In this document: piece by piece, positions 74 to 59,397 of the stretch
Layout: each line of letters begins with the position of its first letter
How positions within the stretch are numbered: the first letter of the stretch is position 1
Assembly (NCBI GenBank): GCA_040954595.2
Contig: CM082579.2
Location: forward strand, 8,607,625 to 8,671,624
DNA length: 64,000 nt
Direction: 5' to 3'
DNA from: Balanoglossus misakiensis
Lineage: Eukaryota; Animalia; Hemichordata
Translations under genes and position numbers: made by a program
Notes under the pieces: generated by a model
What the model saw: the letters and a program-made list of their open reading frames with translations, nothing else
What the model was told of the DNA's origin: nothing
Database searches by the model: none

Positions 74-2421
74 TGCTGATCCTCATAGGCATGCCTACAA
101 TCAAACTGAGGGACGTAGGTTGCAGTCTGGTAGGTGCAGATACTCTGCAGACTGACATATGAGCCCCAAACTCCGGCTACGATGATAAGCAGCAAGGAAC
201 ACAAGAATGACCGGTGGTTTTCAGCTCCGATGCAGCTGTCAATCCTACGGAAACAGAGAAAAACACCACCTCTGGTTAAAGGCACGTAAGCTGCAACTGG
301 ATAAAAAATTAAAGTTTTAAATAATCTCATATATGCTTTTAATTATGTCTATTAAATGCTATTTCATGATAATATATCAAGCTCAACACTTATTTATGAC
401 AAAATGGCCAAAAATTAAAGAAAAACGAAAATTCCTACAATTTTAAAAAAAGTGCAATATTGCAATGAAAAATGAAAATCTGATGTATCAGTGGTGTACA
501 TTTACTTCCATGAGCTCAAGTGGATGAGATCATGTTTTGTTTATGAAGTTTCATAACCGGAAATGCAACATTTTCATTGTTTCTTGCATTTTCCCACGGT
601 GGCGGCCATAATCGCTTGCGGCAAAGCTTTATTATTTATCTGGTTAAAACTTGCATATGCACTCATATTTAGGGTTTATTATGCTTGTGTATAGTTCACT
701 GCCTTCATCTGCATGGACTAATGGTAGTGCAGTTTGAAACAAAAATTATGAAAATTATCCCAGAAGTTACAGCTTACGTGCCTTTAACTACAGTGGCACC
801 TAAGTCATTCTCTGATCTTGGAATACAGCTACACAGCTACTATTAATAAACAAAGTTTGGTTTTCTTAAAGTCTTTGACATAACTTGCTGGGGGGAATAG
901 TCCAATTCTGAAAACAACTTGAATTCTTACCACACACAATGATGATCCAGTGTTCGGACACAGTGCCTGCACACCTTGCAGTGTCCAGCTCTGGGTGGCC
1001 TGGTTATCCGACACACCTCGCACCAATTGTCTCCGTTCACATTATCAATGTTAACTGTAAATGAGTGACTCTGTTCACACAGCACTGTTTTATCGCCGGG
1101 TTTGCCGACCGAGGAGCCACAAGCTCTGGACACTGACGAGGTTCCTTCTCTGCGACTTGGTAGAAGCTCGTCGTACTGACCGCCGGAACCACTTCCGGGT
1201 GTCTGGCCGGACTTCCTGATGATCCCTGGATCCCGCTTGGAAAGGAAAAATGCCACGAACATGAGAAGTACTGTTGCCGCGATCCCGGCTAGCTCATACT
1301 CCGTCACATGGCCAAGCGGGACAACGCATCCAAAGAATATGACACCCAGGTAGACCACTGACACGAGCCCCCAGCTGTAGAAAAACCTGGTTCTGATTCT
1401 GAGTCTGGAGACCTGGCGAAAGTACAGCAGAGCGGCAAGAGGCAGGGTCACCAGCACCAGCACCGTCAGATAATAGTGCAAGGACGCTACGTACAGAGCC
1501 AGCGGGATGACAAAGACCGGAGGGAGGGCCGTAACGTCCGTCACTTCGTCAATTCTCCGGGCACCGCCGAGACACCACGGAATGCGCAGTCTGTCGCATG
1601 CCACTTCCCACACTCGGGTGAAATTCTCCACAGGGACTGGCTGGCACTTGATGAACCTGGTACAGGGATGGGGAGAAACACCTCTGTGAAATACATGTGC
1701 ATTGTACTCTGATCTGATCTGACCTTTAGTAGTTTGATGAATAACAATCAAGCTAATCGGTGTTGAAAGAAGGTGCATGAATATACATGTATTTGACAGC
1801 TGTACATACATGCTCATTATGATTATCATTACCGGTACATTTGCAATTACATGTTTTAATGCCGTCAAATTAAACTGCGTTTTCTAAAGCTGTGCCACAA
1901 AAGGGATTGTCTGTGGTGCCTTTGTACCTACAGAAAATTCAAAAGGACAGGTAGATTAATTTGACAAATTACGTAGTGAACTGGTATATTCCCTGGAATA
2001 CATTCAGAAATCATGATCAAGCGACCAGCGCTACAGCTGTACCGCCCTAAGTCGTACGCCACGGTTTTGGGACACTGTAGCTATGATGTGAAGTTGGAGA
2101 GGGGGGTCTGTCGAAAAAGCGTTGAACGTTTGGACAGTCAAGAAAATAAGCAACTGTAGTTCGGATATGGTTTCCTCGATCGCCAACAGTCGAGTGCACG
2201 CGCAAGTTGTCAACAGAATATTACTTCCGCAATGACAGCGGTAACACTCGATAGTTTCCACAAGATTAAATTCATAAATACCTGTCACATGTATCATCAA
2301 CAGCTTCACAGTCACAAAGGACGGCAAGAACGTGACTTTTTTCACCCTTGACATTCTTGTATTCGCAACAACACAGGGGTTCGCCAATATCGTCTGCACG
2401 AAGTTGACGTTCGACGACCAT
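74..2421 (-). CDS. ZDHHC23: DHHC palmitoyltransferase ZDHHC23-like (3' end beyond left edge)
   Basis: Exons complement(2282..2421, 931..1656, 74..244), GT-AG, phase-consistent. N-terminus MVVERQLRADDIGEPLCCCEYKNVKGEKSHVLAVLCDCEAVDDTCDR plus DRLRIPW matches the ZDHHC23-type N-terminus. DHHC-CRD: CEVCRITRPPRAGHCKVCRHCVRTLDHHCVW|IDSCIGAENHRSF. Confidence 0.93.
280..783. mobile_element. Non-autonomous DNA transposon, Kolobok-like (TTAA target site, AGG...CCT ends)
   Basis: TTAA at 276-279 and 784-787; terminal inverted repeats AGGCACGTAAGCTGCAACT / AGTTACAGCTTACGTGCCT; inside ZDHHC23 intron 2; related copies at 2498-2654 and 61736-62014. Confidence 0.8.
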
Positions 2422-2497
2422 CTTGAAAATGACGCCCTAAGTTGGTCAAAATTGTATGGCTTCAGACCCCCTATCTATATATCTATCTATCTATCAG

Positions 2498-2654
2498 CAT
2501 GGTCTCATCCACTAGAACTCATGGAAGTAAATGTACTCCGCGGCTGAGACACTACATTTTCATTTTCACTGCAATGTTGCACTTTCTGTTTTCCTTAATT
2601 TTTGGCCAATTTGTCATAAAACTATTTTTTTATCCAGTTGCCACTTATGTGCCT
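2498..2654. mobile_element. Partial inverted copy (left half) of the Kolobok-like element at 280-783
   Basis: Reverse complement aligns by eye to about 280-533 (CTCATGGAAGTAAATGTAC; TTTTTTATCCAGTTGCCACTTATGTGCCT). Confidence 0.75.
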
Positions 2655-2745
2655 TTATTGCACATGCTTGGGCTGACATCGCCCTAAATGTACACGAAAC
2701 AGACAGAAATGTGTGGAAAATTATCGAATCAAAGGTGATAAAAGT

Positions 2746-3376
2746 GGGATTTTCCATCACGTATGGTATTATGATCATCATTGGGATATTCATGATGTCG
2801 ACGACCTTATGACATCAGAATGGGGAAACCCCGAGATAGTTCGTAATGGCCGACATTACACTAGAAAACGCAGTGCGTATGAAAGACTATCTCCAGTCTT
2901 TTGCAGATTTAACGCACAAAACGGGTAAGTAGATTCTATAGTTTACATCCAGAATGTTCACAATGTTGCTGTGAGCAGATGGCGAGGAACAGAGTTCGAA
3001 ATTATGGTACGATAATGGTAGAATAGAGAAACAAATAGCGATGACGTATGTATAGACGTATATAGAGTTTGACGACGGAATTGACAATCTGAGTAGTTAA
3101 AAGGCGTTGTAAACATGGAAACCTTTATTTTACTTAAATGATATGCATCACGGTCTGTATTAGTAGTAATGTGAAGCCTTAATTTGAAAGCACATATACA
3201 AACGCTAAAATCTCTGTGTTTCACTTCGTGGTTTAAATACCCTAATGTTTGTAAACATAATGGCGTGATGACTCGCCGACGCAAACCGACCTTTCAGTGA
3301 ACCACCTACATCGTCTCAGAGACAGCCGTGATTTGCGCATGTGCGCGTCCTTGTCGATGATGTTATGGGAAACTCC
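2746..3376 (+). promoter_or_regulatory. Putative NF-kB sites upstream of the SPRY-NHR-ARM-RHIM gene
   Basis: GGGRNNYYCC matches: GGGATTTTCC 2746-2755, GGGAAACCCC 2823-2832, GGGAAACTCC 3367-3376. Strong donor GGG|GTAAGT near 2925 suggests a non-coding first exon. Confidence 0.5.
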
Positions 3377-3739
3377 CGAACTTTTGTACAGAAATGGGTT
3401 TCACTGCATGTTGTTTGACAAAAAAGCTATGGAAGTATTTGCTAATGATATAGGTCTAATCACAATTGCTTTAGGTGCTGAATGAAAGAACGAACAAACG
3501 AATGAATGAATGAATGCAAACATTTTATTTATTTATTTTTTATTTATCATTCACGGAAGTATTTGCTAATTATGATATAAGCTTAATCACGATCGCTTGG
3601 GGAGTGCTGAATAGATGAATGAATTAATGAATAAATGAAACATGAATATCTATCTATCTATTCAGTAAACATACGTACAGAGAACTTGAGCAGTAGTGAA
3701 GATACGAGGTGATGGGATCATTGCACCAGTGCCACCAAA

Positions 3740-6700
3740 ATGGAGCTCAGTCAAACTTATGCCGTGTTAGCTATAGGTAGCAGTGTAGATGATCAACGTC
3801 AGAATATGGCAATGTCCACGGACGACCCGATTTTCGCCCCGCCCGATTCACAGTGTCACGCTTGGGACTTCTCATCACCCACTGACTTTATCAATCCTTC
3901 CGACGATGGCGTGACAGCGGCGTTTCGGGCACGGCCCCTCCGGACCGGACTCATACGAGGCAAGGAATCGTACAGCAGCGGGACGCACGTGTTTGAGATC
4001 CACTGGCCGGAGGAGGGACGGGGTGAACACGCCTCTGTCGGAGTGACGACGGCGCTGCAGCAGCGCTCCTCCGAAGGGCAAACTGATCTCCTGGGGAGTT
4101 CGTCAGAGTCGTGGGGGCTGAACTTACATTGCGGCACTCTTCACCACGACGGCAGAATGGTGGGACAGTACGACGGGGGCAACCTGTTCCCGCACACCTT
4201 CTTTATTCACCTTGACGCTGACGCTGGTACAGTCAGGTGAGATTCACCATGCTTCTCCGTCGGTCGCCCCCCCCCCCTCCACTGTGATTAAAATAAAATG
4301 ATTTCAGCCCGGACTTCAATTCTAATAACAACATTCACAGTGTTTTCTATAAATCTGCTAACATATGCAAGCTGAAAAGTTTGTGACAGGTCCTGAAGAT
4401 TATTCGGCTGGAAATGCAATCCATTGATTGAAGGACCCTAGTTTTCTGGACTCTTTACAGCCGATTTAAATTAGAATGGGTTCATTCCGTGTCGTGTAAA
4501 TTCGGTCTAAATAATTGTATCTTCTCTATCTCATCCAGTTTCATGGCGAACGGGAGGAACCTCGGAGTGGCCTTCAGCGACCTGCCACACACTACTGTTC
4601 GACCGCTCTTCGTTGCCGCGAGCACCACGAACCAATACGAGTGTGCTATACGGATGAGGTATCTTGGCGACGGAGGTCAGTGGTCTCTGATCAGATGTTG
4701 GTTTAAAAAAATCAGGAGTCGCAATTTCCACTATCGTGTTATTGAGAATGTCCTGTTTTGTCGCTTAATTTAAGTAGGTACTTTCTGGGTTTTCAAACAA
4801 TATCCACAGATGCCGTCGTACCGGTGGAAATTATCAACCAGTCACCACTGTTGTACAGATCGCCGTGCACACCCGACTATACTTTCCATCCTCGGTGCGG
4901 GCGGAACATCGAAATTGTTGATGCCGGAACGACGGCCGAGAAGGTCAACGAAGAGTATGTTGCTCGCCACAGTACTAAAATCTAGTCAGATTATTCATTT
5001 CCGAAAATATTGCCATCACACGTTGGCAGTCATAATAACTGCAAAATAAAAACGGGATTTAAAATAGATTGTGTTGCTATTGACGACAAAACTCGGCGGC
5101 GGTTTTATAAGATATTTGATTTATTCGGTCAGGTTATAACCGTTTATCTATAACGTCTTCTTGTCCCAATTAGTAATCGAGTTCCATTTTTCGCTCAGAA
5201 TGTTCAACAATGCGGTAGCTTTAACGAGCCAACCGCTTGAGGTGGACCACCCGTTCGAGGTCAGGTCGGTTTCGAAGACGAGACGAGGCTGGAAAGGCAG
5301 CATCAGGATTGGATTCACGACGCTCTCTCCGCAGACAATGTGCTTCCCGTCGGACATCAAAGAGTGTTCCGAGGGACTGACCTATGTCTGGTGTGGCAGG
5401 CAGCTCTTCAAGAACGGTAACTTGGTGAGCGGAGCGCTGGACTTCGATTTGACGTCGTGCCAGGTACAACTTTTCAAGTCTTTTTTCCGTAGATAGAAAA
5501 TTCTTCTTCGTTTGCAGTTTGGGCGCGGATTACCAGGGAAAACCCAAATCAGAAAAAAAATGAACGGCGGCTTTCTTGGAATATTTACATATTTTATTAT
5601 GATATTACCCACTGACTGTTTCAGGTTGGTGACACGGTCGGCATATTGCTGACAGAGGACGGCTCTGTGCTTTTCTCCCACAACGGGCGATATCTTGACA
5701 CGTGCCTTGTGGCTTTCAAGCGTCCGTCACAGGTGTATGGGGTGGTGGATTTTTCTGGGCCAGTAAAAAGCGTTTCAATCACAGGTATGTCATTTCAATT
5801 TCTGGGCGATACAATAAACGAATAGAAACGATTGTATTTGTAAAAAAACTAGATGTTCGGAGAAATCAACAGGTCCTCCGCCATGTCAAGCTTATGCGCA
5901 AGCGCAGCGTCTTCGCCAGCCAATCTCTGTTGCCGGTTGGGGAATTCTCTTTATACTACATTTTGTACTAATTAACTTGTATGGGAGACAGTCCACACTA
6001 GATGTAGATGTGCAAATACCGTTAAAGGGGTGCCGTGATATCGCAGTGGCAAATATGAATATTCATTGACATACTGTCTACGGTATATTTGTATGCACAG
6101 CCTACCTATAAATATTACTACGAAAAAACATTTGTGGCTTTTTTGACCAATAGAAATACATTTCTGTTCCAGACGATGCCTTGGTTACGCCTGTCGTTTG
6201 CCGTTACACTGGCTCGTCAACCACTACCGCCAGCGGTAACGCGATTGAGGACTGCATGGAAGCTGCGGTGGACAGACTGATGAGAAGAAAAGCCAGCACT
6301 GGCTCCCTGGAGGAGCAATTCCGCGACATCGAATACTTAATGCGCCCCTTGGCAGGCCAGACCCCGCCAGAAGTTCAGCGGCGCTTTGGGGCCCTGCTGG
6401 TGGGTCGCGGAGTGGCAGGGGCGCTGGCAGACCTGCTTCGCGTCCTGCACAAGGGAGACGCCAAGTCCAAAGTGACGCTGCGGGGGCTTGATCTGGTGAG
6501 CCGATTCTGTTGCGAGTACACCAGCGTCAGTCCGGAAATGTGCAGAAGCATCGTGGAAAGCCCGCTGCTGGGCTTGCTGAAGCAGGAATTTCACGGATAC
6601 TGGTCACGGGGGGAGCTTCTGACGAAAGTACTCAGAAACATAAAGATGTATGACTGTACACCTGGTAAGAAATTACTGGTTGTAGATTGTGGCACGGATG

Positions 6701-7173
6701 TGCTAAAATTGATTGCATTATTTGAAGGGATATAGGAATGAAGGCAATCGTAAAAAGAATGTTTCCGGGGGGAGGGGGTTGTCTCGAGAAACCGGTCGTC
6801 CAGTGTAGCATTTGATTGACTGACCGACTGAATGAATGAATCAATGAATGAACGAACGAACGAACGAACGAATGAATGAATGAATGGCCGATTTCAGATT
6901 ATGTCAAAACTACGGGAATGACAAAAACAATTGTCTAAGTATCTCATTTTTGAGTCTCGCGTTCGTGTTATGTTTTATACAGGTTCTCATACAAGATCCG
7001 AGAATAGACCAGAAGCTGATTCGACGAACGGAAACCGCCGAACATTCCCCGAGGCAGAGACGAGCTCGCCACAGGTGGTATTTAACCACCACCATCACAG
7101 CACCCACTACAATATCAACGGCTGTTCAATCGTACAGATTGGTAACAACAACGTTACTGTCCAGGCTTCGTGA
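3740..7173 (+). CDS. Multidomain protein: SPSB-type SPRY + neuralized homology repeat (NHR) + truncated ARM-like helical region + C-terminal RHIM (about 628 aa)
   Basis: join(3740..4236,4539..4675,4810..4954,5199..5463,5625..5784,6173..6664,6983..7173)=1887 nt, all GT-AG, open frame. SPRY: IRGKESYSSGTHVFEIHWP..RGEHASVGV..LLGSSSESWG..LGVAF..MRYLG. NHR: FHPRCGRNIEI..FNNAVALTSQPL..WKGSIRIGFTT..VGDTVG..VYGVVDFSGPVKSVSI. Tail: YNINGCSIVQIGNNNVTV. Confidence 0.85.
6826..6885. repeat. (GAAT)n/(GAAC)n microsatellite
   Basis: gaatgaatgaatcaatgaatgaacgaacgaacgaacgaacgaatgaatgaatgaat in the last intron; a similar tract at about 3480-3515. Confidence 0.85.
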
Positions 7174-8484
7174 TATACGTGTATGGACGTTTTCCAGCGA
7201 TACATACGATCAGTAGGCTCGACTTTGCGGACACCTTTCGTGAGACCTTCAGTGTTGAAATATTGAACGGTAGATTATTTGACGTCAAGATTTATCACAA
7301 CTTTATTATCTTTCCGTGAGAGAGTATTTTGATCCTTTCGTGAAGGACTTATCTCTCTGCCCAGTCCCAAACGAATTAATCTTCTTGTATAGTATGTGTC
7401 AAATGTTATGAAAACGTATTCCTTTAACGTCTTTTGATCATGGCTGTGTCTTATGCCCCGCCAGCCATGCATTCTTTGCTATACGATTGTACTGTTTACT
7501 GAAATTAATCACTTGTGTTGTCATGCTGACCTGGGCATGTTTGGTTTACCACCCACCAGTTATATAGGGATGTAGTAGTACAGGGTACCAACCAGAAGTT
7601 GTGTTAGAAAGTGGGTCATATGACGTAGCCCAGAGACGCGATTTATGGTATAAATTTAGAAATATCTCATTCAGTTTCAAACGCAACAATCCTAGCAGCT
7701 GATATTAGCTTAATGGTAATATTGCTTTTAATAGTCAGGACGCACATAAAGGCGACGTTCTTTGTCAGTTTTATCTAAAAGCATATTCATTAACTGGATA
7801 ACGTGTTCAATCATGGAAAACAATGGTTTTTCACCAAATTAACATTTAATGTCAACGAGAATGAAAGTTGGAACCAGGGATTGAAAATTGCGAGGCCATC
7901 TCGTTTGGTCAGTAAGTGGATAGCTGAAATAATTATATCACACTTAATTAATGAGCAGAGTAATTATAATATAATATATGACTTTTTATCACATTATTTA
8001 TGTATTACATGTATGTATTTTTTAAGACAAGACATTTTGTGTATGTTTAATTGATGACGTCTACGTCAAACGAGACGCACCAAGACATGTGTGAGTGATG
8101 TTTATTGAGTAGGAATTCTCAAAGAGACAGATACAGACAGACTACAGTGAAGGACGAAATCGTGAATAAACACGGATTTGATATTTCTCAAGATTTTTAC
8201 AACCTTTCAGGGTTTTTTGCAAGTGACTTTAAGTGTGAAAGTTTATATGTGCATATTCCTTTTATTTTGTATGTTGCTTCTTTATAAGTCGCAAATAAAA
8301 CCTGTGGAAGACAAGATAACGTTGTTCCATTGCATTGTCTTGTTATTGTGATACCATGTATACTAACTTTTATTTGTGCAACGTCATCACATCTCGTCGT
8401 TGCAACACACGGTGTTTTTGGTGTGTTTAAGTCGTTCTTCCTCTGTTTATAACAATGTGTGGTAGGGACATACCCCTATTCTCA

Positions 8485-8504
8485 TGACGTCAGAGGGGAT
8501 TCCC
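8485..8504 (+). promoter_or_regulatory. Adjacent CRE/ATF and NF-kB sites
   Basis: TGACGTCA (8485-8492), then 2 bp, then GGGGATTCCC (8495-8504); just downstream of the previous gene's AATAAA (about 8295). Confidence 0.45.
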
Positions 8505-9110
8505 TGTTTATGTTAATCGTCGGGTCTGCGGGTCCTCTGTAATAAAACCGGGTCTTGTATGTTATACGTATGACACATATAGTTTTTGAATGGAATGGTT
8601 CTGTTTGACGAGGAGTAGTGTTATTTAGACGAACATGCACAAAAAGACTGGAAAGGCCTTATTTGACTCTATGGCTGCATCGTGTTCCACCCCTGGTTTC
8701 CAAATGGTACATCTCATTGAATCCATTTCCTATGACGTTAAGGGTTTTCCCCCCGAGAATGGCAAGGACCACATGGCAGTAGCGAAAGTAAAAATACAAC
8801 ATTTCCATTCTGATAAACACTGGAGGTAAACCTGCCACACACAGGCGTTCGGCTTTAAAAGGTAAGATGTTATAATACTGGGCAAGTAGGCCCGCATATT
8901 ATATTTTGGCCATCTGGGCAAACGTGAGACTCTCTTCGCTATACATTGACGATAGCCGTCCAGTTTGTCAGCTACAAAGACTTTAAGGCGGGAAGGTTGA
9001 GGGACTTGTGCGCATTGTGTGTGCTGCTACAGGCAACGAAATTCTGCATTGCCACCTGAAGTCGCTAACATTTGGCAGTATTTCCGTTGTCTCTGTTTCA
9101 CAGTTGTACC

Positions 9111-9195
9111 CAATCTGATTAAAATCAGATATAGAGTTGGGTCGCTCTTTAATATTTGGATAGAGCCAACTCTACATCTGATCGTAATCAGACTG
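9111..9195. mobile_element. Foldback MITE, family with CAATCTGATTAAAATCAGAT termini (shortest copy)
   Basis: Hairpin CAATCTGATTAAAATCAGATATAGAGTTGG...CCAACTCTACATCTGATCGTAATCAGACTG; degenerate flanking duplication AGTTGTACC/AGTTGTTAC. Confidence 0.7.
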
Positions 9196-9451
9196 AGTTG
9201 TTACTCTATACCGACAGGTTCCCCGGATGTCAACACAGCTCAACTCACATCCTGCATATTTTGTTTTCAGCTTCTCTGGATTCCATTATCTGTAGTTGTA
9301 TTGACCAATATAAACCGTTCTCTGCCATCCAGGTTTCGTATGATCGCACGCCTCTAACACTCAACCACTGTACAGTTTAATAGTACATGTATTTCATTTT
9401 CGACATTTTCCTGCAAAAAAAAAACACAGCAGGGTCAAAAGTCAGCGAAAT

Positions 9452-9489
9452 GGAAAATACCCACTCTTTGCATAAAGGGGAAAGTCCCC
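9452..9489 (-). promoter_or_regulatory. Canonical NF-kB site upstream of the DED gene
   Basis: GGAAAGTCCC at 9479-9488 is GGGACTTTCC on the minus strand; a near-site GGAAAATACCC at 9452-9462; about 270 bp before the ATG at 9757. Confidence 0.55.
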
Positions 9490-9756
9490 TTGTGTGAATA
9501 GAGTGTTGCCTCATGGCATGAATGCAAGGGAATTTTTGAAGGGAATAACTGACTTCATCATTGGTTCAACGAAAATTGCCAAACAGTTCACAGTCAAAGA
9601 GATCTACAACAAAGACGGGAACAGTGTATATATAGGCCTATGTACGTCAAGAATATTAATGTTTGTTATTTAAAGATATTTCTCCTGGCCACCTCACTTT
9701 GAATAATCTTTATCGTTTTCAGATCATTTAGCTGCAGTTTGTGACACTGACGAAAA

Positions 9757-10892
9757 ATGAGCTTCAACCCGCTGGGCAAACTGTACAAACACCTGGACGA
9801 GAACTTGAAGCGGGCGGACGTCAACGCCATGAAGACGCTGCTGCGGAACAATCACCTGCCGAAGCGCGACGCCGAAAATCTGCAGACGGCTGCGCAGATA
9901 TTCGAATACTTGGAAGACAGGGGCGTCATCGGGGAAGACGACCTGAGTTTCTTGAAGACGCTGCTCAGGGAGATCGACCGGGAACCGTTGATAAGAGCCG
10001 TTGAACGCTATGAGAGGGAGGCGGGTTTAGATCCGGGTAAGTGTCGTTCTCATCTCGGTGTGCAGACGTCACCAGAACATTGGCAAAGTATGCAAACGAT
10101 TGGTTCGGGAGACAGCGACGGGAAATGGTGGAGAATCCCGTTGTAACAAAGATTTGCCATAAATAACAGTTAGAGCCTCTGGCAGATGAAACATTGAACG
10201 ACTGATAAGTAACCGGGGTATAGCTGATAATTGTGTCAGGCGTATGTGCAGTATTTAGAGGGAATCCTACATGATGTATTTGCAGCCAGCGACATAAAAT
10301 GCCTTGATGACTCGAACACGCTGTTATGGCATTAGAGGGCGCACAGCTTAAACTCATAGCATATGCATGACCCTTTCCCATCATCACACAGTCCTCCGTT
10401 TGTGTTTTCCCCATAGTCAGTGGTGCTGCAAATGTCTATCAAGAAACTCACGATTCGATGAAACCGAAATTCATATCATCCCCACCTGCTGTCACAAACA
10501 TCGACGATTTACTTGCAGAAATCTTGAACTCTGTCAGAGGTTCTAAGGGCCAGGTAGGTTATCTTGACCAGAACACATTAAAATGAATTTATAATGTACA
10601 GGGGAACTACTATACAGTATACATACATACATACATACATACATATTCTGATTTGCTTCCTAATACAATTTGTAATATGTATATACAGATTTGTATTAAA
10701 GGGCGTGATATCTCATACAAAGCTAGAGGAAGGATACATGGATGGGACGATCCCTGGGTGTACGACGCATGGGCGATGGATCTGGCGACTAAACACGAAG
10801 AGAAAGCCAGTCACTACCGGGATGAAAGCGACGCCGTCAGGGCAGCCATACGGAGACTGGTGGACCATCTGAAATCGAAGGGTTTTCTGTGA
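9757..10892 (+). CDS. Death effector domain (DED) protein with a C-terminal domain of unknown function (about 206 aa)
   Basis: join(9757..10036,10417..10553,10689..10892)=621 nt, phase-consistent. DED pattern LYKHLDENLKRADVNAMKTLL..LPKRDAENLQTAAQIFEYLEDRGVIGEDDLSFLKTLLREIDREPLIRAVERYE. No death domain or caspase domain follows. AATAAA near 11554. Confidence 0.85.
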
Positions 10893-11770
10893 CATCTTCG
10901 ACTTCGTTCGGGTGCCCACAGCTCACTGTGCCGTTGATGTGGTGTCGGTGGCCGGGGTGACCAGGACGATGTTCGTTCCGATCGATGAAATCATTAGCTT
11001 CAAATATGAAAGCAATGGTGTATTTGCATGCTCTATTTATGGGTCACGTAAAACGGGTCTTTATTTATCAGTTATAGTTCTCTATTTCATAGTAAACTTT
11101 AGGTGAGGTTATTTGGCAAGCTTAGTAAACATGTAATTATGATTTTCACAACGGTGATGATGTGGCTATCCTCGGAAGATTCAAGGACCCCTTATTATCA
11201 TTTTTAAATTTAAGCAAATATACTCGATTTTCCTTAACAAAAGACGGGCAAATTTTAAGACATGTCATTTAGAAGAGTTCTTTTTTAAACATTGACAGTT
11301 TACAAATTACATGCATCGCCAGGACCCATGAAATCACAACGCATTTTGATCGGAACAAACTCGTTCAGCGCCCTCCGTCGACGCAATATCAAGCGGCCCA
11401 GCTCAGCTCGAGTAGTCTTGGTGCGCGTGCGTGTGAATACATGTACAATGTATACCAAAATAACATCAACTTTGGTGCTTCCTTCACCATTTTATGTCAT
11501 AGGTCATTGCCTGAATCATAATCTGTCATCTATAAACTTTTTGTTAGAACTTTAATAAACTTGATGTGAGATGTTAAAGCCTCAAACATTTTAACTGTTG
11601 TGTTGCTTTCGATATTTTTGATATTTGTGTCAACTGCAGTTTCTTATTCGACTGCCTAAAGCGTGACGACATGCCAACGACACGTGTTGGCGGACAATGA
11701 CATGTGGTCATTTCATTCACAGTAGAAGTGACCCCAAATAAGCCCATTGCGTATTCTCGGGTAAGCGTAA

Positions 11771-12235
11771 GGGGATTTCCCTTCACCATGGCAACACACA
11801 TGTCATCGCATATCGTGCTACCAAACACAGTAAGAAGGTTGATTTTGCCAGAGGAATACTTTCCCCCAGAGGTGTTATTATCCCAGCTGTTCAGGAATCG
11901 ACACGGTGTGAAAAAGCAGGGAAATCCGCGTAACGGTCACGGCTCAAAGCTGAGTGCGGTTCTGCGGTTTAAAATCGTAAGTATACGCCTTTCAGTTCAG
12001 ATGGGCGTTGCCGAGAGCAAGTGCCTAGCTTCTTTACATGAATTTGCAGGATATTGAAATATTAGACTGGGCTTTTGAAGTCGTCTCGATGCTCTTGTTG
12101 AATGCAACCGGTGATCGAGTCGTTATGCAATAAGTTCATTTTCTGAATAAATCCTTCATCGGTACTAGTCTCGGTTACCCAGAGCCCTCTGCTTCTTCCG
12201 TTGGGCACTCCAGAAAGAGGGTCTGGGGAAACCCC
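11771..12235 (+). promoter_or_regulatory. Putative NF-kB sites at the promoter/first intron of ARM gene A
   Basis: GGGGATTTCCC 11771-11781, GGGAAATCC 11919-11927, GGGGAAACCCC 12225-12235; donor C|GTAAGT near 11977 and acceptor TTACAG at 12644 suggest a non-coding first exon. Confidence 0.5.
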
Positions 12236-12653
12236 ATAGAAAACTCTCCGGGCAAAGATGGCCGACTTGAGACAAATGCGATGCATGATGGTTGCAGCCT
12301 CAAACATAAAAAAAACATGCTGAGAAGTGCTAGACCTGCTAAAACTGTCTACAAATTGAAAAGAGAGAGAGAAGTTTGGTAAATAGTTTTCTAATATCGT
12401 CATATCATAATATCAAATGTTAAAAATGCGCAGAATTCTGGTGAGAGAAAATTGCTCAGTCACATGACTGTTTAAATAAACATGTCATAGCAGCTAATAT
12501 CAGAGGTGAACTTTGATAAATACGTCAACGAGTCCCGTAAAATCTGTAGACTCTCTGATTTACGGCATGCCATATGCAGTGTGACATCCCACCTCGAAGT
12601 GAACAAGTTCACTCTGGTAAAAAAAATTGCCGCGCAATTTACAGTATTCCGCC

Positions 12654-14824
12654 ATGTCTGATGTTCCTGACGCCCGCATATTAAGTAAGAATGATAGTAG
12701 CCAAGTCAAAATCTCTGATGGAAAACTCAAATGTCTGCCTTGCAGAATAACCACACGCCTCGCAGATACCAGCATGGCTGCTGCTCGCTCGAAAAAGCTG
12801 ACCTCGCCTGGATATCGAAAGAACGTTACCAGCATAGACTTAAGATGTGAGGAACTGTACGATGAGTTCTTTGCAGAAAACGCGTCTTCGCCTATGGTAA
12901 AGGCACTCCAGGCTTTAAGGCCGGGCCCTCATTTCGATATCAATATGGCAACCAGGCTTGTTTCCGAAAACTTGTACAAGTACGTGAACAACGCACCCAT
13001 CTACGAGAGACGAGTGGCGCTGGCCGACAAGTTGACAGCGCTGGACGGTGGTACTGTGCTTGCCAGTGTTCTTGTTGAGCTGATGACGAAACGCAAACCT
13101 ACAGAATACGAGCTGTTAGCTATAGGTATAATATGCTGCACCTGTAGCCTGTTCGCATCGCTCAGTTCGGAGTTGTGCGCGCAGCTTGGGCGGACAAAAC
13201 TGCTTGGCATTCTGTTGGAAGACACAGATGCGTATAGGCTGGGAGAAAATCGAAGTAAGGTGAGATTTGCATTGGTTTAATAGTGGAATATGCGGTTGCA
13301 TTATATCATGATGTTAAAGGCGTTATAAGGTGATATTTCGGTAACATGGTGTTAAAATTGGATGACAGGTTTGGGGAGAAACCGAGACATATTTTAAACA
13401 GCTAACGCAACATGACGATTTGTCCTTCTTGCAGGATCGCTGCGTTTCGGCTCTCTACATACTACTGAGCTGTTCTCGGGTCCCTGGGAATCAAGGTATG
13501 CTTGGCGAACTTCACGCGGCCGAAAGACTGCAGTGGTTTGTTGAAAACAGGGATCTGGAGATGGCCATGGTGTCGCTGTTCACCGTGGCTCACGTTTACG
13601 GAGACACGGGACCGGCGGCCCGAGATAAAGTCATTGACTACATTATCGACTCCTTGGAGTGTGCCGCGCTGGCTGGCCGGTACGCACGCTCCAAAGAGTG
13701 CAAACTGACCGTGCCAGAGATCCTCGCAGGACTGCGCATGGTGGCGCGCAACGAGAAGTCCAGTTCGCTGTTGGTTGACAAGAACATTGTTCGTGTTCTG
13801 TTGGACATTTTGAACGACGGCGATCAGGAAGAACAGGTTTGTGTTATACAGCTCCTTGGAGATTTCGCAGCACTGGAACGGAACAGGAAGAAGATTTTAG
13901 ATACTGCGGGTCCAATTCTCAGTAGGGTTTCCCAAAATGGCACTGAAGACTTACGTTCCATGATTTACGATCTTGTGCTTTATAGACTGCTGGCCAGTCC
14001 TGAGAATATCCATGGTAAGGGTATATTAATAATCCGAACGCTAATGTGGCATTTTCAAAACATGATAAACCCGAATAGAAATAACATTAAATTATAACTA
14101 AAAAATCATATCATCTACGATGATAGGACTATTTTAAGACAAAAATAATTCGGTGTTTTAGGATCTTCTCATTTAAACTCATCACAAGTGTAAATAACCT
14201 CGTTGGTTCTTCTTTGAACGGTTTGATTTTTTTAACAACGCAATACATGTAAACGCCACAATACAGTTAGCTATTAACAGTCGTCGGCAGACTGAAAGAT
14301 TCAGTCGTGTGCGGGCGCTCTGGCGCACTTCGAGCTTAGTATCGTAACCACCGTGGCATTTCTGTTTCTGCATCAGGCCGACCTGACAGCAAACGTCAGG
14401 GGAGAATTACACTGGACGAGACGAGAAGACACAAGTCGGCAAGCACACCAGAACAGAATACAGAGGCAGACTTGACAAGAAGCATGATAGGTCATCAGCG
14501 TGTGCAGGGAGGGCAGGTTGCCAACGGTCATTACAATACTATAACCATAAACAACTACTTTCCGTGTAACGACTGTCATTCACCAGGTTGGTTTTTCCAT
14601 ATAATATATTGAAGCGATCTTGAAGTCTGCATATTTATAAATAAAGAAATTGATCCACACGATGTCTACAAAGATGTCTTTATCTGTCTGTCTGTCTGTC
14701 TGCCTGTCTGTCTCTCTATCTCTCTCTCCCTCCCTCTCCATCTGATTCTCTTCTTTGTAACTTGTTTCCAGATATTCCGTGGAAATCAGCGACGATGCCA
14801 CCGCCATACAACGATATCCAATGA
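12654..14824 (+). CDS. Armadillo/HEAT-like repeat protein A (about 482 aa), no TIR domain seen
   Basis: join(12654..13259,13435..14014,14377..14586,14772..14824). Helical repeats: RVALADKLTALDGGTVL..FASLSSELCAQLGRTKLL..SALYILLSCS..EILAGLRMVARNEKSSSLLVDKNIVRVLLDIL. First two exons are solid; the last two exons and the start codon (alternative ATG 12774) are less certain. Confidence 0.75.
14683..14740. repeat. (GTCT)n/(CT)n microsatellite
   Basis: tctgtctgtctgtctgtctgcctgtctgtctctctatctctctctccctccctctcc, intronic. Confidence 0.85.
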
Positions 14825-17596
14825 AACCAGTCACTGAGAACTACAGTATTTCGCCCATGGAAGTCGCCGTCGCGTCTTCAACCAATCAAGGGGACTCCGT
14901 CATAACTCAAAATTCTATGGTGGTCGACATAATACCGTCGACTAGAGAACGTTGGTAGAGTTACAATGAGTCGTTGATTAATATGAAGTTGAACGCAATT
15001 CAACATAAATTAGTTTGATATTTGGGACATTTTGTGTGTATTCAGAATTCAGTATTTTACAAACTCTCCAAATAGCCAGAGTGAAAAAAACATGGTTTAA
15101 CAATAGATATGCTGTAGTTGCGATAGTTTTTCTTGTCTAAAATATATTTGGTGGGACTCAATAACTCTGTGAAACTTATCGATAGTACCTAAGAATTAAT
15201 GGATATTTCACATGAATAACTTCAATGCACATTGCTGGTCAATTGTTGTATTGATGTATATATTATACGCATAAGTCCCGAATATATCATTTCTAACCAA
15301 TATGGTTTAATAGTGTTGTTGGCTATTTAAGCCTCAGATATGAAATAAAATTAATGACACACTAGCTCAGCTGTCTTGAAGCAAGTTATCGTCATGTCCT
15401 ATCCGTTCTCCTAACTTGTGTCTCTCTAATTACTTGCCTTTCATTTTTCACAGCACTGTCCGAAACAGTATGTATACCAGAAAAGTCGCGCAGATAAAAC
15501 CTTGGGGAAAATGTCAGACAACAGCAAACTTAGGGCGCTTGGAAGTTTGGGGCGCTATCAATAATCGAGAAAACTGATGAAAACGGTCATTTTGGACACA
15601 CAGGAAATAATTATAATCCCTTCTTCTCCTTTCCTTCGTGGCGGGCCTTTCGCGGTGTGTGACTGTGCACAAATCAAGCTGGGGTCTATCCTGAAAACAC
15701 TGGCATTCGCCAGGCCGACAAATGCGGGGCGATTGTGTTTTATTGCGAGTTTGTCACAGAACTTCCCAGTTTGAAAGTAATGGAACTTGCTCATGCCGGG
15801 TGAACCGTACGGCAGAAGGAATTTAAGTAAGCTCTGCATACATGTATTCCAATAAATAATGTGGCCAAATCAATCTCCACCACTTTCACGACCGTTCATG
15901 TAGTCGTGATTCTTGCCCGCCATGTTAACCGCGCAAAACCGTGATTAAAATGGTATTTTAAATTATAATACATGACTACATACATACATGTATGTGTGGG
16001 GTTGTTTTCCAAATGGATCTTGGTTCCGGGACACTTACTTTCTACAGGTACTTAGAACACGTGACACCGCGTTGAAAACCACTCCAGTGCGAGTGTCTCT
16101 TCTGTTGCCCGCAGTTGTTTGAGGGAAGTGTGATGCCGGTCCACGACCTCGCGGAGCGCTGGGTGTTTCTGACCAAGTTCTTCCTGACCACCTCGGTTCA
16201 CTCGGACTGGAGTCCCTCTGATTAGGTCAGTATCTTTGTTTTTATTCCGCTATCTGCATCGGTGATGGTGCTTGCACGAAGGCGAAATGGGCGCCTTGGT
16301 CATTCGGCGACTACATGTACCTCGAGCCGTCCTGATATCAAACCTTGATTTCTATTTCCTGTTTTCTTGTCTCGCACGAGGAAATGAACTTTTTTGGAGA
16401 CGCGGAAATACACCCAATGGTAGACATATTACATTCCACCCAGCAAGAAAGGGAGCCTTACGCACTTAAAACGCACAGACAATACTAGTATACGATTTAG
16501 CCTGTGACTGCAATCGATGGAAACAGAGAACGCCTTTGCTCTTTTCCGAGTCAACGAACAGACATCTTGTCCTTCTGTTTTATGGGAAGGTCCATCGCCG
16601 CAACGGGAAGTCTAGAAAGACAGACTCCAACAGGTGGTCAAAATCCTCGCGTTCCACTTTACGTACGTACTGCGAAATAGGCGTCGGTCGGTAAACGTGG
16701 GAGATAACCGGGGTCAAAACACTTCATTGTCGTGGTGAAAGTGGCTGCTCGCTTCTCCAGGGACTGGAATGTGTCTACCACAGACTTCGTTTGTGTGCCC
16801 GTTTCGCACAATACGACACACGTCCAGGGTATCATAGGGTTAGGGCCAGCCCGGTGCGTCAATCAGGGTCCACAGACAAGCGTGGCATTCGAGTCCGTGC
16901 CCGTTTGGTCGAATGGGAATCGTCGACCTGAACTTGATAGACTAGTACATCGTTGCCATTTGTTTATACCTGTCTACATGTAAACGCCTCGTAACAAATC
17001 TCAGCCCACGCACTTGAAATGTGCCGGACAAAGGTATCACGTAATTGGGCTCCTTTTGTTCGCCATTCTTTTTTTAGACCCAAGGTCTCAACGCGTGGCA
17101 CTATCACCAGATGATGTCACTTAGGATACACAATCGCGAGAGGAAGTCACGTGAACAAAAATCCCTGATATAACAGTGATAGTTTTATGTTATGCTCTAT
17201 AAGCGTGCATCCCTCATCTCTTCCGCTTTTGTTTAATAGGGTATGGACAGTTTAATACACAGCAAACTCGGCAAGATCAGTGATCAGCTGAAATTTTAAT
17301 CTATTAATGTCTGACGTTGTTTTGATTGTTGGACTGACATAGAAGACAAAATCCCCACACGCGCACGCTATGAAATTAAATTTTCTGCCCACCGAAAACC
17401 TTCTCAACTTTAATGTGTGCGTAAGTGTATGTGCGCACGCGTGACAAAGATGTATAATACAGAGCTATTTCGGGGAAGTTTTTCCAGTCACTTGACTGGT
17501 TGGTGGGTAACCCGGATACACTTTGCACGTGTCGCTTCACCGAAGCCTCATCTGAGATTGTTATCGCACTGTAGGCAGGGCCAGGAGGGGAACACC

Positions 17597-20500
17597 ATGA
17601 GCGCGGACACCGAGGACGGTCCGTCTCTGCAACGGCGCTCCAAGGTCATGATGCCGAGAAGCCGGAGTGTCATCACCAGCGCCGACATGGAAGACCTTCA
17701 ACTCGACGCTGACGGCGACGCTGCTACCGCGGCGATAAATGGCGGTGAAGACGGAGACGGTGATCAGAGACAGACCGAGGCTTCGCCAGCTGCCACCAGC
17801 AGTACCAGCCCGCAACTTTCACCCGCAGCGAGAGACCACCGGGATAGGTTCCCGAGTTTTGACTACACGGGCGATGACGGTAAGCAGTGAGCCAAAATTG
17901 CTGGAATGGAATGCCTTTGAGAGATGGTGCTTTCGCGTTGTTTGTAATGTATGGGGGTGGTCATGTTTACTTGTGTAGGTTGTAAACGCATGGCTGTGAG
18001 TGACTGTATACCTTGCGCCACTAAAGGTACGCTCCGCTTCGTCCATTGTCGTCTGTAAAACCACGGGTCTTATCTGTCAAAAAACAACGTGCACTTCTCA
18101 ATACTGCATGAAGCAGCCACTCTTCTCGACCCTGTCACTGCAGCACCAGGCTATTTTGCACCATACTGTGCGAAATGGCGAGGTGCTTGCTCATCGCCAT
18201 TTTGTCCAGCCCCCCGTTTAATTGTGTGCATCGGTGGAATGTCAATGAACAAACGGACCGCCATTACTGATGTAACGCACGTAGAAACGGCGCGTAAAGA
18301 TAGCCAGCAATGGCCTAAGCATGTAAACATGAAGTGTACAAAGGCGTTACAGATCGCCCGACTTCCCACTTCTCAACTTCTGAACGCCAAAGCTCACACT
18401 TCAAAGGTCGGCTACAGTTTATTATAAGTCGCCAAATCTACCTGCCAACATAATTAGAGTATATGTCGAGCATTTCTCATCTCTAGTAAACGTTGTAACC
18501 AGATGTGAACTGATTAGGCCTACGTATATTTTAAAAATTAATTCCACGGAATCTGCATAAAGGTTCATCTTTTGTGCTGTGACATTTCCCAGTACATGTA
18601 TGTTGAAGTGGGTAAATTATAGTACATTGAAGTAGGCAAATAAACAGTTACTAGAAAATTCACGGTAGTCCCCAATGTTCAACCGCACATTTGTGTGAAT
18701 ATCTCTGCCCGTGCTGGTTTTGGATGCATTAGACGAGTGTCAAAACTTAACATGCAAATCATAGCGTTGTGACGTCAACATTTGCAGAAGAAATACGACT
18801 TGTTAATGCAGTGCTTTCTTGCCGGTTGTAAATGTATGTCAGCATGTAAATTCAAGGATAAAGTATAAAGACTAGTCCGAACTTTCAATTTTGAATAATA
18901 ACAGTTCTAATTGTAATCATAGGGGGCTTTGCCCATATCTAAACATACTCGGCATTTTAGAGTCGAACACGGAAATACTCTTGATTCACAGAATTACGCA
19001 CTGAAAATATTCAAATACTGAAGCCAGTGGGTTTTTACATGTAGCTGTGTACCGTAAGCGTTTCGTGGTAACTTTGATAAACTGTGATATTTATGATACA
19101 CTGAGCGCCTCTTTTTGAACTTTGTACGGACAGGTCCGAGCAGAAAACCAACAGATAATCGTGACATTTCGCAGCGAAGAGAGCAGGCGGGTACAAAACA
19201 TTCACGCGGCGTTAAGATGACCCCAACGGTTGATTTCGGGCAGCGAGACGCCATCGGGAAGATGGCGCAGGCCGTGGAGAGCATGAAGCGGAGCGAGGCG
19301 AACGACATCTGGGACATGACGCGGGAGGTCGCCACTCACATCTACATGCCCTTCCACGCCACGCACAGCGAGCAGACCCGCCACCAGCTGGGCGACTACC
19401 TGGCGACCTCGGGCGGGGGCCGCGAGCTCACCTGGTTCCTGGCCAGCCTGCTGGAGATCGAGGACAAGACGGAGAGGATCTGGCAGTCCATACACTTCGT
19501 GCAGAACACCTGCTGGGACTACTCCGACGTCAGCCTGACGCTGTGCAAGGAGTTCGGCAAAGGCGGACTGTTGAATCTCATGTTCACGAACCTTGAACGC
19601 TTTGGATTGCAAAAGTACACTACCATGGTAAGTACGTGTATTAACCGTGCGTCTCAATGTAGGAAGTTACAAAATCCGACACAGGTGAAAGTAAGGGACT
19701 ACTTAGAGGTAGTTCCTGGTTATCACACTCCATAGCTTATATGTGTAATTTTGAGAAAATTGTGTTATAATATTATACTTTTCTGGAAGTTTTCTCTAAC
19801 GCTGTGTTATAACGCAAACACCACACATGCCATGTCGACAAAATGTTTGCTTGGTTTTTATCGTTGTTGTTTACTTCCCGATTGGGATTTGGTTTTATTC
19901 TGGTGTCGGTTGTCTGTGTCGTGACCGAGTGGTTGGTTTGTTTTGGCAGGTTTATTGATTACCCGAGCGTCGTGAGCTGCAACTTACATCAACTCCATAT
20001 CTTGTCATTTTTGGTTTGGTTTGATTTTCATTTGGCAGCTGTCAGCCATTATTTCGATTGCTGAGTGGAAGTTTATGACGACTTGCTTATCCAGTGCTTC
20101 AATATGCTTGTCTTTCAGGGATTATTAGACAAGTATTGTTAAACTTATTTCAGGAAATGATATTTATGTACAGTCATGTTTTTTTTTCATCACGCGTGTA
20201 TATTTTCCCCTGACAGAATGAACGTCTCTTGGTCATATCGTCGCTTAATATTTTACACAACTGCTCGAAAACGTTTAAGAACTTGAAAGAGTTCAAAGGC
20301 CAGAATGCCGTGAGGAAACTGCAACCGTACACGAGTGCGCGGGACAAAGAATTAGCCATGCTCGGACTCTTCATTCTGTCGTACGTGGCGGACGACACCG
20401 AACTCGATGTTCTGAGTTCGAGTAACGAGATGACGGACTACATCCTGGCGATCTTGAACAATGCTTTGGACAGCCCTACCTTGAAAGGGAGGTCGTCGGA

Positions 20501-21645
20501 GGGGAACTTTTCCGCTGTGGAAATCCTCAAAAGTTTGTCCAATCTCGCCAGAAATGACCGAAACAAGTCGAGTATGGTGAGCCGGGAGGTCGCGCACATA
20601 CTGTTGCAGTTTTTCCAAAGGGGGCGCTCGCCCGAGAAGAAGTTCGCCGCCAATCTCCTGACGGTGCTGCTGAAGTTGCCGAGCAACCGGACGAAAATCA
20701 TCGAGACCAAGGGACTGGTCAACATGGTGAATGGTCTCTGTAAGAGCCACGACGCGTCCGTCAAAGAGGCTGCCGAGAATGTAATGATGGCTATTATGAG
20801 ACCCGCCTCTGTGACTGATATACCAGGTGCGTTAGGCGGTATGGTCGCCGTTTGGTACTCAAGGTCGACGATCGTCTCATGCGCACGTGTTTAATTTCGT
20901 GTGAACAAACACTAGACCCAATCCAAATGTTCTGCAAATTTTGCGTTCGACGCAATCAAATAGCGGACTGTCTTCGTTTCCTTTCATATTTCCTGCGCAC
21001 TGTATAAGTAAACTTTACTTTTGTCCCTTTTCTTCGCCCAATTTGCTGTCTTTTATCGGTCACCGACACAGACTATGGTCGCCGCCATCTTGTCTGTTGT
21101 CAGGACAGCACATTGCCTTATGGCATTGACTATACATTTTTTGTAACCAGGGACTCTGGTTTACACGTGCGCATAAGACGATCATCGCCCTTTAATGTAA
21201 TGAATCACAATCCTTCCATGATGGTGGCGTATTTCTTCACGTTGGTATTTCTGTAGATACAATCACATGACTATATGCCTGTACACGAAACTGTTTACAT
21301 GTATTAAGAAGCAAACGTGAAGAAACAGATGGTCAGTTGTGCATAACATATCGGTAAAAAAAATACCATTCTTTCGTGTGATGTACAGGTAAACGGGAGA
21401 AGGCTGACCTTGCCAGGCAGAGGTCAAAGCAAGCGCATCGCAGTTTGGTGTACACCAGCGGCCGCCCCGACGACGACGACGACGACACATTTGAGCTGCC
21501 ACTGCCGAAGCCGCGCTCACAGACACTCGGAAGAGCCGTCACACTGAACGGCACTAACAGCGCCAACCAAAATCCCCGGCACTCTGTCGACATTTCCGAG
21601 GCCACCGATGTGGTGTTCGAGAACGAAGAAGACTCGGTCTGTTAG
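17597..21645 (+). CDS. Armadillo/HEAT-like repeat protein B (about 547 aa), paralog of A, no TIR domain seen
   Basis: join(17597..17879,19134..19627,20217..20826,21389..21645)=1644 nt, GT-AG, open frame, GC3-rich exons. Motifs RHQLGDYLATSGGG..CWDYSDVSLTLCKEFGKGGLL..SSLNILHNCSK..FSAVEILKSLSNLARNDRNK; low-complexity N- and C-termini. Confidence 0.85.
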
Positions 21646-39400: not shown

Positions 39401-39773
39401 TGCATGCGAACACTAAAAAAGACAATCTATACGGGCACGGAAGACTCTTACCGTGGATGTCGTGATCGAATTTCGTGCCGCTCACTTTTCCGTCGTCCAA
39501 AATCTGCAAGTGGTACCCGGTGAGACAGTACAGTTGCCGGTAGTAGAGCGGTTTGCTGTACATGCTGGCTGGCGAGTTGGCTCCGCGACACGTGCATTCT
39601 CCTCCCTGTCCAGCCTGGGCATCTCCTCCGCCGGTCGCTGCAGACTCGCGCCGGGGGTTGGGCGCCGGGACAGCTCGGCCGTCGACGACCACACCGGCTC
39701 CGGTGAAGAAGCCGCCGAGACCGAGCACGAAAAGTGCGAGGACTCCCGTCTTGTAACTAGCGGTGCGCGTCAT
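30487..39773 (-). CDS. FGF9/16/20: Fibroblast growth factor, FGF9/16/20 subfamily (about 233 aa)
   Basis: complement(join 39452..39773, 31112..31215, 30487..30762). Three-exon FGF layout with a 104-nt middle exon. [18 protein letters not shown]; [20 protein letters not shown]; EECHFRE..NWY.TYSS; C-terminal [14 protein letters not shown] typical of FGF9/16/20. Confidence 0.93.
31945..32330. mobile_element. Probable small TIR element in FGF intron 1
   Basis: 14-bp inverted ends GTGACCAGGTGTGG / CCACACCTGGTCAC (extra left copy at about 31901); internal direct repeat CTGGTCTGGAAACCGCGCCCAGAAG twice. No clear TSD. Confidence 0.45.
36436..36576. mobile_element. Foldback MITE, same family as 25876-25996
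   Basis: Ends CAATGATTAAAATCAAATGTAGGG / CCCTACATCTGATTTTAATCAGATTG; flanks AATCTTGAC (36427-36435) and AATCTCGAC (36577-36585); shares the internal segment TAGTGTGAGGCGACAGCATAAA with the 25876 copy, in reverse. Confidence 0.78.

Positions 39774-59365: not shown

Positions 59366-59397
<32 letters not shown>

Follow-up and report, generated by a model that had tools for sequence, protein, structure and literature searches.

Do four neighbouring genes of an acorn worm make up one inducible signalling unit, and would such a unit pass on a death-type signal or shut it off? The genes, g1–g4, lie in a 64,000-nt window of Balanoglossus misakiensis (the whole stretch of DNA analysed here) as spliced, intact, co-oriented neighbours on the forward strand, and a first-pass annotation had read them as a sensor/adaptor/regulator set, with a feedback brake as a second option. 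Judged from identity, introns and phylogeny, g1, g3 and g4 are paralogues that arose as NEURL4-like (SPRY)-NHR-ARM-ADP-ribosyltransferase genes multiplied in hemichordates, while g2 encodes a single death effector domain (DED). We tentatively favour the reading that g1–g3 encode NF-kB-inducible, enzyme-less decoys that would damp RHIM-amyloid and DED-filament signalling.

Four intact genes and their domains

Joining exons by their coordinates rebuilds all four adjacent, co-oriented genes of the first-pass annotation with open frames, GT-AG introns throughout and zero internal stops (Table 1); the window sequence is without any N, and the placement of the non-coding first exons and of the start sites comes from splice-donor matches only. 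Pfam profiles, run exon by exon on the 18 single exons of g1–g4, identify the DED of g2 (PF01335, 73.1 bits against a cut-off of 35.9) and the Neuralized repeat (NHR) of g1 (44.7 and 27.3 bits, cut-off 23.3). SPRY scores on two g1 exons (22.3 and 17.8 bits) each fall below the 26.3 cut-off, the domain being divided by an intron. ARM-type models match weakly (g4 exon 3, best E 6e-5; g3 exon 2, E 0.06), and the ARM identity of the g1, g3 and g4 regions is supported by homologues and by the predicted AlphaFold2 (AF2) model of a relative. The SPRY, NHR, DED and ARM calls made earlier each have profile or homology support in this way, the ARM of g1 being present as a first half only. The four gene models are also, as previously remarked, free of kinase, caspase and TIR matches across the 18 exons, and no kinase or caspase gene is found among the annotated open reading frames of the window.

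A disarmed branch of an effector-bearing family

HMMER returned 270 matches to g4 exon 3, and the figures that follow come from the best 150 of 270. Among the 150 matches listed, TIR_2 is present in 69, NHR in 16 and a kinase in 8 (tallied by hand at E ≤ 0.01 and 1e-4), and 9 fit a transferase-like-tail pattern; with TIR_2 in 69 and NHR in 16, an immune effector is the usual fusion partner of this ARM family. The closest among the matches listed are hemichordate. g4 is 58% identical to P0001 (Ptychodera flava, XP_070553159/61) and 41% to P0002 (Glandiceps, XP_077984192), its orthologues, and g3 is 46% identical along its whole length to its P. flava orthologue P0057 (XP_070553157/8), RHIM-like and PPPY motifs included; all three relatives are annotated as uncharacterised. 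The accession of P0057 directly precedes that of P0001 and both lie on the same 50.6 Mb P. flava contig, which suggests that the g3 and g4 orthologues are neighbours there too. The fourth relative, P0003 (XP_070553384), a P. flava 'neuralized-like protein 4', is 36% identical to g1 over 560 residues and may be either the g1 orthologue with its enzyme retained or a paralogue.

Within the cluster, g3 and g4 share 27% identity over 301 residues (E 6e-28) together with intron positions and phases, and the helical part of g1 weakly matches the first half of the g3/g4 ARM. A quick midpoint-rooted tree of 86 ARM rows, kept from 163 profile matches after length, score and isoform filters, places g1 (40% coverage), g3 and g4 in one 16-row clade with hemichordate NHR-ARM proteins (Shimodaira–Hasegawa-like approximate likelihood-ratio test, SH-aLRT, 97). 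Pairing of g3 with P0057 has support 100 and of g4 with P0001 support 98; the place of g1 within the clade is unsure, an NHR+ARM tree giving it a long branch with support 55/77. Because g1, g3 and g4 are paralogues by identity, introns and clade, their adjacency needs only tandem duplication. Seven P. flava clade members (P0001, P0003, P0004, P0007, P0010, P0022 and P0057) share the one 50.6 Mb contig, and ARM-only, truncated or degenerate clade forms occur in P. flava and in Saccoglossus.

P0003 and related proteins close with a domain of ~200 residues that carries HGT, FLS and EIE motifs, where the ADP-ribosyltransferase domain of NEURL4 has HGS, LLS and ELE (PMC7955679); transferase activity has been reported for human NEURL4 (PMC8932523). 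Atlas neighbours of the P0003-type tail are PARP-domain clusters at 0.95. AF2 modelling of P0004 resolves NHR and ARM and leaves the tail at a predicted local distance difference test (pLDDT) score below 50, so that the transferase-like call rests on motifs and Atlas neighbours; the matches that Foldseek listed for this model are to NHR and generic ARM structures, SARM1 not being one of them. On this basis the tail of the hemichordate 'neuralized-like protein 4' proteins is best described as ADP-ribosyltransferase-like.

This tail is absent from the g1, g3 and g4 models and from the window, where tblastn with 157 homologues matched only the four gene bodies. TIR-bearing homologues gave no tblastn match in the window outside the ARM exons, and none of g1–g4 is of an ARM-TIR or SARM1-like kind. 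g1 retains NHR and half an ARM, and g3 and g4 retain ARM only. Lacking the tail, the three are derivatives, not enzyme members, of the NEURL4-like NHR-ARM-transferase family, and loss is preferred to primary absence because Lingula relatives at the base of the clade carry the domain (midpoint root only).

Other hemichordate members also look disarmed, the first catalytic His being replaced in P0022 and P0043; P0010 has a truncated tail with an SH2 match, and P0019 is ARM only. One clade (P0012, P0021, P0026, P0072, P0084, P0104 and P0129) combines the same ARM with Mind bomb SH3 repeats and a tail that is a kinase or transferase-like; those members whose source was looked up are from Branchiostoma. 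An inverted repeat of 30 nt (20861-21192) in a g4 intron is possibly a small mobile element.

g1 splices a half ARM to a RHIM

The SPRY of g1 is of the SPSB type, judged from PDB matches of P0003. No SOCS box follows it in Pfam and NHR comes next instead, an arrangement other than the SPRY plus SOCS box of SPSB proteins. The ARM then breaks off halfway, about one codon from the family intron position, and splices to an exon whose VQIG agrees with the (V/I)Q(V/I/L/C)G core tetrad of RHIM (PF12721; consensus from PMC9444067). This is the sole tetrad+xxN match in 127,996 six-frame positions of the window, and the motif arises by chance in 97/200,000 shuffles of the exon and 35/20,000 of the whole protein. 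Nine of 14 residues, counted by eye, are identical to the human RIP3 RHIM (sequence from the PMC4262963 supplement), and donor 6665, which sets the frame, is closer to consensus than donor 6628. We read the g1 tail as a canonical RHIM, for which amyloid formation and RHIM–RHIM binding are predicted only. No g1-type orthologue turned up in the deep search, whose query was the second ARM exon of g4, which g1 lacks, and no search was aimed at g1 itself. P0003 and P0004 begin Met-Gly (possible myristoylation), a start not found in g1.

g3 carries a RHIM-like motif and a PPPY tag

The N/Q/G-rich motif noted earlier in g3 is real, and is refined here to a divergent RHIM-like motif with PPPY after it, the gene ending at 14824; an alternative ending in another frame was rejected, as it would need a non-GT donor. 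The RHIM-like stretch is identical to P0057 at 14/21 residues, against 46% in the ARM and 41% in the linker, and the CxxC of the tail is kept in P0057 as well. PPPY motifs recruit WW-domain HECT ubiquitin ligases. A mosquito cryptic RHIM (cRHIM) with N at position 3 forms amyloid (PMC9531809), and the g3 motif may likewise be a candidate amyloid former or RHIM binder. Such tails are no common feature of the family, since tetrad+xxN occurs in 0/173 homologues and the relaxed motif in P0057 alone; a metagenome scan with P0057 gave 220 pattern matches, of which 0 were confirmed.

g2 encodes one DED lacking the FL phenylalanine

The g2 DED aligns to both DED1 and DED2 of caspase-8 (E 7e-10) and to PEA-15 chains (E 3e-4) in the PDB. 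It reads T-L at the F-L position of caspase-8, and REPL replaces RxDL; FL motif, RxDL motif and second death-fold domain, the marks of a FADD-type adaptor, are all absent. Almost every DED is described as conserving the FL motif, without which chains fail to grow although first recruitment still occurs (PMC3477315, PMC7864959). Absence of the phenylalanine argues against a FADD-like positive adaptor.

The 67-residue C-terminal exon, modelled by single-sequence AF2, is mostly one helix (pLDDT 67, predicted template-modelling score 0.35). It has no Pfam assignment, and its best matches elsewhere are weak (Atlas 0.75, PDB E 2.4, NCBIfam E 0.09); a dsRBD/HicB-like fold, considered by eye, found no support. 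Three word-based searches against longer proteins, made with exon 2 of g3 and with the C-terminal and DED exons of g2, were blank, the weak search with the DED exon giving no g2 orthologue; these blanks carry little weight because the g3 exon 2 search missed P0057, a 46% orthologue. A g2 intron holds a 36-nt inverted repeat (9108-9198), possibly a small mobile element.

kB sites cluster upstream of g1–g3

Matches to a strict kB pattern (GGGRNNYYCC) were counted upstream of g1 (2400-3739), g2 (8300-9756), g3 (11500-12773) and g4 (16100-17596), inferred first introns included, against dinucleotide shuffles (n = 200 per region). Sites upstream of the first three genes, which the first-pass annotation had reported, number 3, 2 and 2, with 0.04, 0.10 and 0.05 expected; the counts were attained in 0/200, 1/200 and 0/200 shuffles, and in 200/200 for g4. 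Together the g1–g3 regions hold 7 sites against 0.19 expected. Across 2400-15000 there are 8 against 0.94 expected, and across 21701-64000 (42 kb) 5 against 3.0. No repeat family is shared across the sites among the largest listed (20 of 36 direct, 25 of 34 inverted). The enrichment near g1–g3 is real; we infer that NF-kB uses these predicted sites and would probably induce g1–g3.

A DHHC palmitoyltransferase exon (927-1700, minus strand, Pfam E 3e-10) lies head to head with g1, in a gene that continues toward the window start. The two kB sites before g1 are also ~1 kb upstream of this divergent gene.

A possible decoy mechanism and its alternatives

Under the decoy reading, infection signals would activate NF-kB and so induce g1–g3, g4 being regulated otherwise. 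The g1 RHIM, and perhaps the g3 variant, would enter the RHIM fibrils that RIPK- or TICAM-type adaptors form while bringing no kinase or enzyme, much as Pirk acts on Imd; the g3 PPPY could then recruit a WW-domain HECT ubiquitin ligase, by which the complex would be cleared. The g2 DED would be taken onto a FADD/caspase-8-type filament and, unable to pass on the FL contact, would cap it. A single complex of the g1–g4 products is not required. We infer every functional step. As a reading, the feedback brake offered earlier gains support; a purpose-built sensor/adaptor/regulator set does not, given three paralogues explainable by tandem duplication, a g4 without a kB site and a g2 DED without the FL phenylalanine.

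Several observations weigh against the decoys. There are zero kB sites upstream of g4 (16100-17596). The earlier RHIM call on g1 stands on its canonical VQIG, but the Pfam RHIM profile gives its last exon 18 bits (E 0.0021), just below the cut-off of 20, and the motif retrieves no RHIM chain from the PDB at E ≤ 10. The RHIM frame hinges on donor 6665, and the last exon is open in a second frame too. The g1 ARM remnant is identical to P0003 at 32/129 residues (25%) against 46% in SPRY and NHR, a faster divergence that also fits decay. In g3 the VANG core departs from (V/I)Q(V/I/L/C)G at 2/4 positions and no Pfam RHIM match is found at E ≤ 1, so the motif is classed as RHIM-like only; it exceeds the background conservation only marginally (p 0.04 compared with the ARM and 0.016 with the linker, for a segment picked post hoc), and the likeness of the g1 and g3 tails, equalled by shuffles in 413/2000 and 663/2000 cases, is not above chance. 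The change that suggests a filament cap in g2 is one residue, with human caspase-8 as the yardstick, and hemichordate DEDs may differ. A canonical RHIM can, finally, nucleate as well as inhibit.

The locus could instead be just a tandem array from a rapidly evolving immune family, with an unrelated DED gene alongside, some members being NF-kB targets that act separately and not mainly as death-signalling brakes. This we regard as a serious contender, though on balance doubtful: the single hemichordate clade of g1, g3 and g4, the seven clade members on one P. flava contig, the ARM-only, truncated and degenerate forms there and in Saccoglossus, and the want of any g1-type or g2 orthologue tying the four genes together all agree with it, whereas the same kB enrichment at the unrelated g2, the convergence of RHIM, RHIM-like, DED and PPPY motifs on one pathway and the g3 tail kept in a second species do not. 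Sensors such as ZBP1 are inducible. A positive sensor-adaptor module, in which g1 SPRY and NHR bind ligand, the RHIM nucleates amyloid, g2 signals to a DED caspase and NF-kB primes the pathway, would suit the g1 RHIM sitting where relatives have an effector. Branchiostoma RHIMs, too, are reported in places where immune architectures usually have a death-fold domain (PMC4262963). Such a module seems unlikely, as g2 has neither a RHIM or death domain linking it to g1 nor the FL phenylalanine and RxDL, and the annotated frames of the window include neither kinase nor caspase.

Least credible of all, to the point of being very improbable, is that g1 is a decaying or mis-modelled NHR-ARM-transferase copy, with the RHIM a chance reading or the missing exons an assembly gap. 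An ARM ending about one codon from the family intron position, a long branch, the second open frame and the lack of a found orthologue of the g1 architecture would be expected of such a copy. Its seven in-frame exons have canonical splice sites, donor 6665 is the stronger, the window is free of N, and the motif is both protein-terminal and unique of its kind in six frames, at a whole-protein shuffle rate as low as that given above. The decoy reading is kept as the one we favour, possible rather than probable.

Comparison with known systems

Closest in plan are the hemichordate and brachiopod (SPRY)-NHR-ARM-transferase-like 'neuralized-like protein 4' proteins (P0003, P0004, P0006, P0005 and P0158). 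g1 shares their SPRY, NHR and first ARM half in the same order, and g3 and g4 share ARM and clade but not SPRY and NHR; all three are without the transferase-like tail, and g1, without the second ARM half, ends in a RHIM. Invertebrate ARM-TIR(-SAM) proteins have the same ARM family in a more distant, separate clade, and g1–g4 have neither TIR nor SAM; ARM-TIR is a named class in an oyster immune catalogue (PMC4346834).

A proposed likeness in function, not in descent, connects g1 and g3 to Pirk, a RHIM-like-motif inhibitor of Imd signalling. PEA-15 and cFLIP-S have a DED without a caspase, as does g2, which adds to its one DED a C-terminal region of no assigned fold. Pirk is itself induced by NF-kB. 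Its type of inhibition of cRHIM amyloids is described for Imd signalling (PMC9531809). cFLIP-S terminates DED filaments (PMC7864959) by steric clash, whereas the capping proposed for g2 would follow from loss of F, and no homology is claimed. In the invertebrate RHIM proteins of Kajava et al. 2014 the RHIM holds the effector position, as in g1; that source describes Branchiostoma RHIM proteins with shuffled immune architectures and the RHIM-like motif of Pirk (PMC4262963), and its main text makes no mention of SPRY, neuralized or Armadillo.

We found no description of SPRY-NHR-ARM-RHIM, of ARM with RHIM-like and PPPY motifs, or of this cluster in a literature search that leaves out most subscription papers, and supplements could list such genes. 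Term searches were negative in PMC10210618 (main text and one supplement), the source of Saccoglossus poly(I:C) data, and in PMC8662601, and passages of PMC8195603 and PMC2575513 describe none of these architectures. They appear to be new as architectures; their parts are of known kinds, and so is the logic proposed for them.

Feature coordinates and neighbouring genes

Table 1. Features of the g1–g4 cluster in window coordinates.
Feature	Position	Strand	Remarks
g1	3740-7173	+	628 aa, 7 coding exons; SPRY (SPSB type), NHR, first ARM half, C-terminal RHIM
g1 coding exons	3740-4236, 4539-4675, 4810-4954, 5199-5463, 5625-5784, 6173-6664, 6983-7173	+	
g1 half-ARM exon	6173..6664	+	weak phase-0 donor 6628 near family intron position; strong phase-1 donor 6665 leads to RHIM frame
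g1 RHIM	7108..7167	+	predicted; core tetrad VQIG at 7132-7143, then NNN, at protein end
g2	9757-10892	+	206 aa, 3 exons; one DED, 67-aa C-terminal exon of no assigned domain
g2 coding exons	9757-10036, 10417-10553, 10689-10892	+	
g2 DED FL-motif position	9835..9840	+	T27-L28; alignment to caspase-8 DED1 and DED2
g3	12774-14824	+	442 aa, 4 exons; full ARM, RHIM-like motif, CxxC, PPPY
g3 coding exons	12774-13259, 13435-14014, 14377-14586, 14772-14824	+	
g3 RHIM-like motif	14499..14561	+	core VANG at 14517-14528; VVNG in P0057
g3 PPPY motif	14798..14809	+	kept in P0057, 7/9 surrounding residues identical
g4	17597-21645	+	547 aa, 4 exons; ARM with low-complexity ends
g4 coding exons	17597-17879, 19134-19627, 20217-20826, 21389-21645	+	
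kB site	2746..2755	+	upstream of g1
kB site	2823..2832	both strands match	upstream of inferred first donor of g1 at 2925
kB site	3367..3377	.	within inferred first intron of g1
kB site	8495..8504	.	upstream of g2
kB site	9479..9488	-	inferred 5' intron region of g2
kB site	10130..10139	-	first coding intron of g2
kB site	11771..11781	.	upstream of inferred first donor of g3 at 11977
kB site	12226..12235	.	inferred first intron of g3

Beyond the cluster, two similar exons without Pfam match (24843-25640 and 27135-27863) flank a kringle exon (26585-26890, E 5e-14) at 24400-28500 on the plus strand. The minus strand carries exons of an FGF gene (30487-39851), with kB-pattern matches at 30460 and 30536 by its last exon and not upstream, a COMM-domain gene exon (43095-43445, E 2e-16) and, by eye, an EF-hand-like exon (48916-49329). 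COMMD proteins are NF-kB regulators; no link to g1–g4 is implied. A 3-beta-HSD/NSDHL-like gene lies at 59152-59941 on the plus strand (E 0.0014).

Implications

Outside mammals and insects, RHIM signalling and the ways in which it is controlled have hardly been studied. If the decoy reading is true, a non-chordate deuterostome would have its own inducible RHIM and DED inhibitors, arrived at by domain loss and swapping from an undescribed-looking NHR-ARM-transferase family. It predicts that a DED capping filaments exists in nature, that a variant RHIM comes with a conserved PPPY tag, and that invertebrate 'NEURL4-like' genes act in immunity. More broadly, and here we would expect to be wrong, acorn worms may have disarmed an ADP-ribosyltransferase family to make a cluster of genes that NF-kB induces and that shuts off amyloid and death-filament signalling: in one copy a RHIM took the place of the enzyme, another acquired a variant RHIM together with a ubiquitin-ligase tag, and a DED gene that caps filaments came under the same control. 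Should the reading fail, the locus would still be a clean case of effector swapping on one ARM scaffold, with TIR, transferase-like, kinase, CARD and RHIM as the exchanged parts.

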